IMG/VR virus record: IMGVR_UViG_2660238580_000001
Coordinates: 1-37,504 of that record
Direction: 5' to 3' (one strand)
Source of the DNA: a virus
Lineage: Duplodnaviria > Heunggongvirae > Uroviricota > Caudoviricetes
DNA length: 37,504 nucleotides
Position 1 is the stretch's first letter; every line of letters begins with the position of its first letter. This document shows positions 8,780 through 9,755 of this stretch, piece by piece. The notes below the pieces were generated by a model that was given only the letters and a program-made list of their open reading frames with translations, ran no database searches and was not told where the DNA came from. The position numbers and the translations under genes were made by a program.

Positions 8780-9432
8780 TGAGTAATAAATATTGCCAGG
8801 CGCTGGTGGAACTGCGGAACAAACCAGCCCATGAACTGAAGGAAGTGGGCGATCAGTGGCGCACGCCGGACAACATTTTCTGGGGAATTAACACCCTGTT
8901 TGGCCCGTTTGTTCTGGATCTGTTCACTGACGGTGATAACACCAAATGTGCTGCGTATTACACGGCGGAAGACAACGCGCTGGCGCATGACTGGTCAGAA
9001 CGTCTTGCGGAGCTTAAAGGTGCTGCCTTTGGTAATCCCCCATACAGCCGCGCCAGTCAGCATGAGGGGCAATACATCACCGGCATGCGTTACATCATGA
9101 AACATGCCAGTGCCATGCGTGATAAGGGCGGGCGTTATGTTTTCCTGATCAAAGCTGCCACCAGCGAAGTGTGGTGGCCGGAAGATGCAGACCATATTGC
9201 TTTTATTCGCGGGCGTATTGGTTTTGAACTGCCTGTCTGGTTTATCCCGAAGGATGAGAAGCAGGTGCCGACAGGCGCTTTCTTCGCTGGTGCTATTGCT
9301 GTTTTCGATAAGACCTGGAAGGGATCGGCAATCAGCTATATCGGGCGCGATGAACTTGAGGCATGTGGTGAGGCCTTTTTGGCGCAGGTTCGCCAGCAGG
9401 CGGAAAAACTGGTCAGGGAGATGGCGGCATGA
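8779..9432 (+). CDS. Phage N6-adenine DNA methyltransferase (Dam-type)
   Basis: ATG at 8779 overlapping the upstream stop (TAATG); catalytic NPPY motif (FGNPPYS). Confidence 0.85.
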   Translation: MSNKYCQALVELRNKPAHELKEVGDQWRTPDNIFWGINTLFGPFVLDLFTDGDNTKCAAYYTAEDNALAHDWSERLAELKGAAFGNPPYSRASQHEGQYITGMRYIMKHASAMRDKGGRYVFLIKAATSEVWWPEDADHIAFIRGRIGFELPVWFIPKDEKQVPTGAFFAGAIAVFDKTWKGSAISYIGRDELEACGEAFLAQVRQQAEKLVREMAA

Positions 9433-9755
9433 CGACGTTAACTCAATGCCAGCAGCAGGTGCTGGATATGCTGATTTCTTATCAGAAAGAACGTGGCTTC
9501 CCGCCAACCAATCAGGAGGTGGCAACCATGCTGGGATACCGTTCAGTGAATGCAGCGGTGGAGCATCTTCGCGCACTGGAGAAAAAAGGCGTCATCACGA
9601 TAAAGCGTGGCGTGGCCCGGGGCATCACGCTTCATACCGCGGTGAAGGACGACGACAGCGAGGCGGTCGGGATTATCCGCTCACTGCTTGCCGGTGAGGA
9701 AAACGCAAGGCTGCGTGCAGCCCACTGGTTACATGAGAGGGGCCTGAAAGTATGA
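9429..9755 (+). CDS. LexA DNA-binding-domain-only protein (no S24 protease domain)
   Basis: 108 aa; matches LexA N-terminal wHTH pattern (LT..QQ.V.D.I....G.PPT..E.A..LG.RS.NAA.EHL.AL..KGVI.I..G..RGI.L) and ends before any catalytic domain. Confidence 0.8.
   Translation: MTTLTQCQQQVLDMLISYQKERGFPPTNQEVATMLGYRSVNAAVEHLRALEKKGVITIKRGVARGITLHTAVKDDDSEAVGIIRSLLAGEENARLRAAHWLHERGLKV

Follow-up and report, generated by a model that had tools for sequence, protein, structure and literature searches.

The stretch analysed here, referred to as the window, comprises positions 1 to 37,504 of the virus record IMGVR_UViG_2660238580_000001 (Duplodnaviria; Heunggongvirae; Uroviricota; Caudoviricetes). Its rightward early region contains a small gene, here called the LexA DNA-binding domain (LexA-DBD) gene, for which the open reading frame (ORF) list gives an ATG start codon at 9429 on the plus strand and a product of 108 amino acids (aa). 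The product is a LexA-type winged-helix head that lacks the S24 protease half and ends in a conserved tail, predicted to form two helices. The gene and the parts of its product are as follows.

9429 to 9755, plus strand, stop codon included: LexA-DBD gene (PHROG 362; 'LexA family transcriptional regulator' in PGAP, WP_000210164.1), from the ORF list, Pfam, PHROG and TIGR00498.
9429 to 9635, plus strand: winged helix-turn-helix (wHTH) domain, residues 1-69, with helices 6-22, 28-35 and 40-52 and beta-wing 56-59/65-68, from PF01726, AlphaFold (AF2) and Foldseek.
9543 to 9584, plus strand: recognition-helix segment S39-K52 (SVNAAVEHLRALEK), from the PDB search and alignments.
9648 to 9737, plus strand: family-specific C-terminal tail, comprising predicted helices 74-87 and 93-103, conserved hydrophobic positions and ARxRA, from AF2 (predicted local distance difference test, pLDDT, about 87) and alignments.

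Residues 1-65 match the full PF01726 (LexA_DNA_bind) model (positions 1-65 of 65, E = 2.9e-19, 69 bits against a cut-off of 23.7), and the runner-up Pfam family, HTH_Crp_2, stays under its own cut-off at 18.9 bits. LexA_DNA_bind is the sole family above cut-off, and no unrelated wHTH family is assigned, in agreement with what the preliminary description expected of a profile search. The nearest PDB entry by sequence is the N-terminal domain of E. coli LexA (1lea, E = 7e-16). The AF2 model, computed from a 15-sequence alignment with a mean pLDDT of 78 and a monomer predicted template modelling score (pTM) of 0.52, shows a head of three helices and a two-stranded wing, as in LexA. Foldseek aligns this model with DNA-bound E. 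coli LexA (3jso_B) at a root-mean-square deviation of 1.3 A over 68 residues and 50% identity, with S39, N41, A42, E45 and the RGI of the wing retained. In contrast to E. coli LexA, the window protein has no S24 catalytic and dimerisation domain with its Ser-Lys dyad, its E44 is replaced, and its post-hinge segment is helical. Specifically, Pfam finds no S24 domain (PF00717) in the 108-aa protein, and the next frame encodes RusA. Furthermore, TIGR00498, the NCBIfam model of full-length LexA, aligns over model positions 1-91 of 203 only and reaches 70.8 bits against a cut-off of 110.95, indicating that the protease half is absent and that the protein does not qualify as a LexA under the NCBI criterion. 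The S24-less LexA head first described at 9429-9755 is therefore confirmed, as is the claim that it escapes RecA, since RecA-stimulated self-cleavage cannot inactivate a protein without the S24 domain.

The same description presented the protein as a LexA head that just ends. The lack of S24 stands, but the protein is not a bare truncated head: a conserved two-helix tail of 35-40 residues defines its family. In the AF2 model the linker residues 69-75 have low confidence. No Pfam model covers the tail, whereas phrog_362, labelled 'transcriptional repressor', matches residues 1-108 along positions 1-106 of its 106 (1.4e-59). Near relatives at 66-98% identity, found in E. coli, Shigella, Citrobacter, Salmonella and Hafnia, retain the tail. 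A HMMER search of 1.84 billion representatives adds members 40-48% identical to the window protein, with both head and tail, from Cronobacter, Kosakonia, Enterobacter, Cedecea, Klebsiella and Salmonella, and all named members belong to the Enterobacteriaceae. Head and tail are common to these distant members, and the conserved pattern consists of hydrophobic positions and ARxRA. Length (104-112 aa), both domains and genomic position are kept over at least six genera. In 43 nucleotide alleles of the E. coli clade, a sample with ascertainment bias because the loci were ranked by protein identity, synonymous divergence (dS) from the window gene is 0.01-0.14 and nonsynonymous divergence (dN) is 0-0.012, nearly all changes being synonymous; against Citrobacter, the dN/dS of the head is about 0.10. 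Head and tail are thus shown to be under purifying selection. Frameshifted or fused versions are also present in the databases (P0021, P0024, P0030, P0079, P0092 and P0098, with P0021, P0092 and P0098 being Dam-LexA fusions) and are either errors of assembly or genes in decay within defective prophages.

The start of the tail bears a trace of LexA. HMMER aligns residues 70-90 with LexA 70-86, through the hinge to A84-G85-E86, so that LLAGE lies opposite LexA VAAGE and the hinge vestige falls at the cleavage-site position, which suggests that the family arose from an enterobacterial lexA cut just past the cleavage site. The Ala-Gly pair is variable in the family (LLANEE, MVERES, MIDDQP, LLACNV and others), indicating that the segment is a vestige and not a working cleavage site, and AF2 predicts it to be helical rather than strand-loop. 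The tail was therefore rejected as a retained cleavage site or decoy. Because neither an S24 domain nor a cleavage site is present as a working feature, the protein is not a LexA repressor.

The DNA-contact residues of LexA, taken here from secondary sources, are S39, N41, A42, E44 and E45 (PMC3091678; PMC13416735). At positions 39/41/42/44/45 the window protein has S N A V E where LexA has S N A E E, so that four of the five are kept. Within the family S39 never varies and N41 hardly does, and most clades carry SPNAAAEHL[KR]AL, one residue away from the LexA segment SPNAAEEHLKAL, despite an overall identity of 40-50% to the window protein. The dominance of this state argues for LexA-like recognition of the half-site.

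The surroundings of the gene in the window are as follows.

5436 to 6110, minus strand: CI-type prophage repressor with Peptidase_S24 (PF00717, 1.5e-26).
7347 to 8288, plus strand: O-like replication gene (Pfam/PHROG).
8746 to 9432, plus strand: Dam-type N6-adenine methyltransferase, upstream neighbour, with the PGAP-equivalent start at ATG 8779 (Pfam PF05869, 4.8e-45).
9415 to 9432, plus strand: Shine-Dalgarno-like AGGGAGA (9415-9421) and ATGA overlap of the dam stop with the LexA-DBD start (9429-9432), from sequence reading.
9752 to 9755, plus strand: ATGA overlap of the LexA-DBD stop with the rusA start (translational coupling), from sequence reading.
9752 to 10141, plus strand: RusA Holliday-junction resolvase, downstream neighbour, conserved in nearly all contexts examined (Pfam PF05866, 6e-15).
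10960 to 11955, plus strand: DUF968/HNH protein, a conserved neighbour across the family (Pfam/PHROG and context comparison).
11970 to 12320, plus strand: antiterminator Q, after the DUF968 gene (Pfam/PHROG).

On the plus strand the order is cII (Phage_CP76, from 6433), O-like replication gene, PerC, Dam, LexA-DBD, RusA, KilA-N, DUF968/HNH and Q (to 12320), all ORFs lying on the same strand and overlapping or abutting without gaps. This stretch constitutes the rightward delayed-early operon of a lambdoid E. coli prophage, and the synteny upholds the original assignment of the gene to an early-right operon. No sigma-70-like plus-strand promoter is predicted directly upstream of the LexA-DBD gene. 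Given its position in this operon, the gene is expected to be silent in the quiescent lysogen and expressed once the phage has infected a cell or CI has been cleaved; because the CI of the window phage carries S24, the phage should be directly inducible by RecA-stimulated cleavage, unlike the sister-clade phages described below.

Coupling to Dam and RusA, as proposed earlier, is seen in the window at both ends of the gene. The dam stop TGA (9430-9432) shares bases with the LexA-DBD ATG (9429-9431) in a 4-bp ATGA, 7 nt downstream of the Shine-Dalgarno-like motif, and the LexA-DBD stop TGA (9753-9755) shares bases with the rusA ATG (9752-9754). The linkage to Dam is local, however, and the constant neighbours in the family are RusA and DUF968. 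In all contexts examined (the window and loci L001-L007) the gene has the replication genes on one side and the antiterminator on the other, in a nin-like region; DUF968 is downstream in every one, RusA in nearly all, and Dam only sometimes. The ORF list of locus L025 contains no rusA. Translational coupling of the LexA-DBD gene to rusA is found in the window and L003, and genes are inserted between the two in L002 and L006.

A different setting is found in sister clades, among Cedecea/Enterobacter and Klebsiella-type loci, where the gene belongs to the following cassette.

L025:9214-10527, L006:5500-6610 and about 30 loci (L013-L039, L046): SOS-controlled cassette of Klebsiella/Cedecea/Enterobacter-type lambdoid prophages.

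The operon has the order [dinI], PHROG 1813 ORF (phrog_1813), LexA-DBD, PHROG 1212 ORF (phrog_1212). dinI (PF06183, 8e-22) heads the operon in 18 loci, and the two small ORFs are present in 30. A perfect CTGT-N8-ACAG lies about 430-530 bp 5' of the LexA-DBD gene in 26 of the 35 sister-clade loci, and this SOS box overlaps the -10 element of a promoter placed after a terminator. In L025, specifically, a Rho-independent terminator is followed by the -35 element TTGACC, the -10 element TATACT overlapped by TACTGTTTATTTATACAGTA, and the first gene. Among 23 distinct sister-clade promoter sequences the sole invariant block is CTGT..T..ATACAG, which we read as the clear footprint of a functional host-LexA site. 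The two sister-clade phages that were checked, L006 and L025, have 128-aa repressors with a helix-turn-helix (HTH) only and no S24, and in L025 the repressor is accompanied by YdaS/YdaT. Such an immunity region, devoid of S24, is of the Rac/Gifsy type. The window phage has none of the cassette partners, neither dinI nor the PHROG 1813 and PHROG 1212 small ORFs.

When recurrent 5+5 palindromes were sought without bias within +-6 kb of the gene in the 35 sister-clade loci, the SOS box ranked first, in 29 loci, and a terminator second; the remainder are fixed-position coding palindromes of single clades. The SOS box is the sole cross-clade palindromic element that travels with the gene within +-6 kb, and no second cross-clade operator candidate was found in that range. 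Over all 127 scanned loci (2.07 Mb) there are 129 perfect CTGT-N8-ACAG matches against about 31 expected, in a count that is not independent because the loci are kin. In the window, no operator-like inverted repeat was found between 8200 and 12400; an operator may possibly lie farther off, or in the host.

Other SOS boxes were seen in the scanned loci. A second perfect box, about 480 bp 5' of the operon box (about -1010 from the gene), is present in the Klebsiella-type loci L026, L032-L036, L039 and L046, and presumably controls another inserted gene. In many E. coli-clade phages with the LexA-DBD gene, a perfect consensus-like box, TACTGTATATAAAAACAGTA on the coding strand, recurs inside the linker of the CI/XRE-type repressor gene (L001:5946-5961, L047:6332-6347); the window cI allele does not contain it. 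A further perfect box, CTGTAAAAATAAACAG (L054:5455-5470), occupies codons 4-9 of a 350-aa DNA methyltransferase-like gene and recurs +3.9 to +6.4 kb from the LexA-DBD gene in about 25 E. coli-clade loci; it could mark a LexA-regulated methyltransferase or be a coding-sequence coincidence.

The sister-clade operon resembles the induction operon of the Gifsy phages, which comprises a LexA box, dinI, an antirepressor gene (gfoA/gftA) and irsA (Lemire et al. 2011; PMC3121763). Both have a terminator, a LexA box on the promoter, dinI, a small ORF and a third gene, both lie downstream of replication genes, and, in the sister-clade phages that were checked, the repressors are likewise short and non-cleavable. 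Two gene-level equivalences were considered and rejected: Gifsy-2 irsA (STM1020) encodes a DUF1367 protein (4e-98) that gives E = 13 against the LexA-DBD protein in BLASTP, and the PHROG 1813 ORF has no similarity to GftA. The resemblance is therefore one of architecture, not homology. The PHROG 1813 ORF, which occupies the position of the Gifsy antirepressor and has no Pfam match, is a candidate for a new antirepressor family. The window phage differs from the Gifsy arrangement, having no LexA box, dinI or small ORFs, and a cleavable CI.

The sole stand-alone LexA head that we found whose function has been defined by experiment is gp6 of GIL01, a tectivirus of Bacillus thuringiensis, a homologue of the LexA N-terminal wHTH without S24 (Fornelos et al. 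2018; PMC6182141). Like the window protein, gp6 is a phage-encoded, S24-less LexA head among early genes, and the switch of its phage is wired to the host SOS response. The two differ in build, target and setting. gp6 is essentially a wHTH alone, with 14 wing-forming residues as its sole C-terminal extension, whereas the window protein adds a two-helix tail of about 35 residues. gp6 binds its own palindrome, GaCACAnnTGTGaC, rather than the host LexA box, and is an activator of the late promoter, whereas the window protein keeps a nearly LexA-identical helix; the gp6 operator overlaps the -35 element of that promoter, and the scans of 8200-12400 in the window and of +-6 kb in the 35 sister loci, which do not prove absence, found no such candidate. 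Finally, gp6 is from a Bacillus tectivirus, whereas the window protein is from lambdoid phages that use Q for their late genes, and the two are set side by side by description. Another GIL01 protein, gp7, keeps LexA repression in force after DNA damage and thereby suppresses a co-resident prophage (PMC9700832), but the analogy is confined to the outcome, as gp7 binds host LexA and is not a DNA-binding LexA homologue. The LexA-DBD protein is a member of PHROG 362; it is not a LexA repressor, not irsA, and not demonstrably an orthologue of gp6.

Our leading interpretation, to which we assign a probability of roughly 0.4, is that the LexA-DBD protein may act as a RecA-insensitive LexA surrogate at SOS-type operators. 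It would be a small DNA-binding regulator, derived from enterobacterial LexA, that RecA cannot inactivate, built from the LexA winged-helix head and a hinge vestige, with the protease and dimerisation domain exchanged for the two-helix tail. The tail would provide the dimerisation that LexA draws from its C-terminal domain; the weaker Foldseek matches include dimeric wHTH regulators with C-terminal helices (MntR, ArsR, MecI, Rrf2), and by this analogy we infer that dimerisation is tail-mediated. A hydrophobic-moment analysis of the tail helices for a dimer interface was uninformative. The dimer would then bind CTGT-type, SOS-box-like palindromes through its near-LexA recognition helix. Because RecA cannot cleave it, such a surrogate would restore repression at SOS boxes during the destruction of host LexA. 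Its targets in lytic growth would be the boxes of host SOS genes, or those of LexA-controlled induction operons in co-resident prophages; in the sister clades they could include the protein's own LexA-controlled operon, creating a RecA-independent negative feedback. The net effect would be an SOS response that is damped or limited in time, and prophage induction that is tuned or out-competed. Indirect support comes from the four retained contact residues and the near-LexA helix, from the LexA-box operons of the sister clades, often headed by dinI, from the SOS box as the one palindrome that recurs across clades near the gene, and from gp7 as a precedent for a phage that holds back a co-resident prophage by maintaining LexA repression.

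Several observations weigh against the surrogate interpretation. In the window there is no perfect CTGT-N8-ACAG, the number of SOS boxes with one mismatch is at chance (17 found, 12.8 +- 3.8 expected), and pairs of CTGT and ACAG at spacings of 0-20 in both orientations are not enriched, the few matches being located in coding sequence. The box of the sister clades is clearly constrained by host LexA, but not demonstrably by the phage protein. Enterobacteriaceae hosts all share the CTGT-N8-ACAG consensus, yet E44 is replaced in every clade (V/A/T/F/L/Y), E45 is altered in several (L in the large Klebsiella clade; I, G, T and D elsewhere) and A42 in some (T, G), so that a universal role at SOS boxes is not assured; the Klebsiella clade with E45L still lies behind a canonical SOS box. 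The loss of E44 and these derived clades speak against a strict dependence of specificity on the host box. Binding of the protein to SOS boxes is itself a prediction from contact residues, dimerisation through the tail is a step that we infer beside a monomer model with a pTM of 0.52, and the one characterised stand-alone LexA head, gp6, has a different operator and is an activator.

The main rival, a phage regulator of the gp6 type, has a substantial, if minority, chance of being the better account. The protein would in that case be a drifted LexA head with its own phage or host operator and no general action at SOS boxes, activating or repressing particular genes, for which the delayed-early-to-late timing and the moron or lysogeny genes are candidates. 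The precedent is an S24-less LexA head that binds its own palindrome at -43.5 of a late promoter and activates it (PMC6182141). The family-wide loss of E44 and the variation of residues 42 and 45 among clades that face a single host SOS box are as expected of phage-specific operators, the window has no SOS box, and the PHROG 362 label is merely 'transcriptional repressor'. However, the region 8200-12400 contains no inverted repeats of note, no non-SOS palindrome recurs across clades within +-6 kb in the 35 loci, the recognition helix is almost LexA-identical in most clades, and late transcription is already served by the Q antiterminator. The neighbours suggest another role, which we consider unlikely, as a non-transcriptional DNA-binding accessory of the recombination/replication module formed by RusA and DUF968/HNH, for example in targeting or protecting DNA sites or structures during lytic replication. 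RusA and DUF968 are kept as neighbours across clades in which the protein is 40-100% identical, and in the window and L003 its translation is coupled to that of rusA, but the conserved order may be mere backbone synteny of a lambdoid subgroup, L002 and L006 have genes between LexA-DBD and rusA, and the protein has the head of a classical sequence-specific repressor with its recognition residues preserved.

The vestigial hinge could also be read as functional, with the tail serving as a decoy or pseudo-substrate (LLAGE resembling LexA VAAGE) for RecA* filaments or for S24 proteases such as LexA, CI and UmuD. The HMMER alignment of residues 70-90 with LexA 70-86 and the extension of the TIGR00498 match through model position 91 fit this proposal, and in 18 sister-clade loci the gene shares its operon with dinI, which encodes a putative RecA-DNA filament-binding protein (PMC3121763). 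We nevertheless regard it as very improbable, given that the Ala-Gly pair is not conserved, that the segment is predicted to be helical, and that what is conserved is the hydrophobic pattern and ARxRA. A functionless, decaying remnant of a captured lexA would account for the many frameshifted or fused variants in the databases (P0024, P0030 and the Dam-LexA fusions P0021, P0092 and P0098), but it is effectively refuted by the conservation data: length, both domains and position are conserved in at least six genera, dN is low, and the gene is found in 41% of complete E. coli genomes. A role as a defence system was also considered and set aside, PADLOC giving no meaningful match.

The gene is very common, and its carriers include medically relevant phages. 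At >=95% identity it is present in 2233 of 5426 complete E. coli genomes (41%), where the copies are almost always chromosomal and there is often more than one per genome. Among the 50 phage records that also contain it are 15 Stx2c-converting phages, SfV (orf42, 'unknown'), SfIV, mEp460 and Kati; a protein-level search adds the SfII and cdtI phages. A scan of genome contigs for related loci yielded only 5 loci. The PHROG 362 family, defined by head and tail, was found only in lambdoid prophages of Enterobacteriaceae. A pangenome study of Stx phages lists a 'LexA family transcriptional regulator' pham from 15 phages (pham 237, pfam01726), as an annotation only (PMC8136144), which is probably the same family. 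The full-text literature contains annotation-level mentions of the PHROG 362 family, and we found no functional study of it there.

Stand-alone phage LexA heads are thus already known, one of them is characterised, and a PGAP annotation of the present gene exists; to a specialist an SOS-related hypothesis is a natural one. In viral structure space, stand-alone LexA heads of 65-150 aa are widespread, occurring in Tectiviridae, Mycobacterium phage Wildcat and uncultured Caudovirales, and 50 of 132 representative matches are at most 120 aa long. The distinctive features here are the conserved tail, the near-native recognition helix, the lambdoid and enterobacterial range, and the sister-clade operons with dinI and a LexA box. 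Proteins with two tandem LexA heads per chain and no S24 were also seen, from unrelated metagenomic sources (P0128, P0130, P0139, P0140 and P0145); they look like built-in pseudo-dimers, a different answer to the loss of the LexA dimerisation domain.

The surrogate interpretation can be extended to a broader proposal that we hold to be doubtful. Enterobacterial lambdoid prophages, Stx2c-converting and SfV-like Shigella phages among them, might carry a dedicated, uncleavable LexA whose dimer, held by a novel two-helix tail, re-occupies SOS boxes after LexA cleavage, closing the SOS window, exerting RecA-independent negative feedback on the LexA-controlled induction operon in Rac/Gifsy-type phages and silencing the LexA-controlled antirepressors of rivals in polylysogens, so that a widespread, unrecognised SOS brake would be present in about 40% of E. 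coli genomes. The SOS response governs mutagenesis, persistence, prophage induction and Shiga-toxin release. If the proposal is true, the gene would commonly, though so far unnoticed, shape both the response of lysogens to DNA-damaging antibiotics and the outcome of competition among prophages in polylysogens, with a reach that extends over about 41% of complete E. coli genomes and the Stx2c, SfV/SfII/SfIV, cdtI and mEp460-type phages. The sister-clade arrangement of LexA box, dinI, small ORF and LexA head would furthermore add a new component to the Gifsy/Rac-type antirepressor switch. Should the protein instead have its own operator, it would be one more ordinary phage regulator.

Two further observations concern the rest of the window. 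The O-like replication protein contains a repetitive peptide stretch, DPSKSDASKSDPSKFDASKS, at about 7640-7730, which was seen in translation only; short direct DNA repeats are thereby implied within the replication gene, similar to the iterons of lambdoid origins. Between Q and the holin gene there is a leftward insert of two genes (12345-14547, minus strand), one for a homologue of the 37-kDa nucleoid-associated protein (NA37/YejK-like, PF04245, 1.5e-68) and one for a 394-aa protein without a Pfam or PADLOC match. The insert resembles a moron, and in L001 the same site holds a different insert, consisting of a hypothetical protein and IS3.

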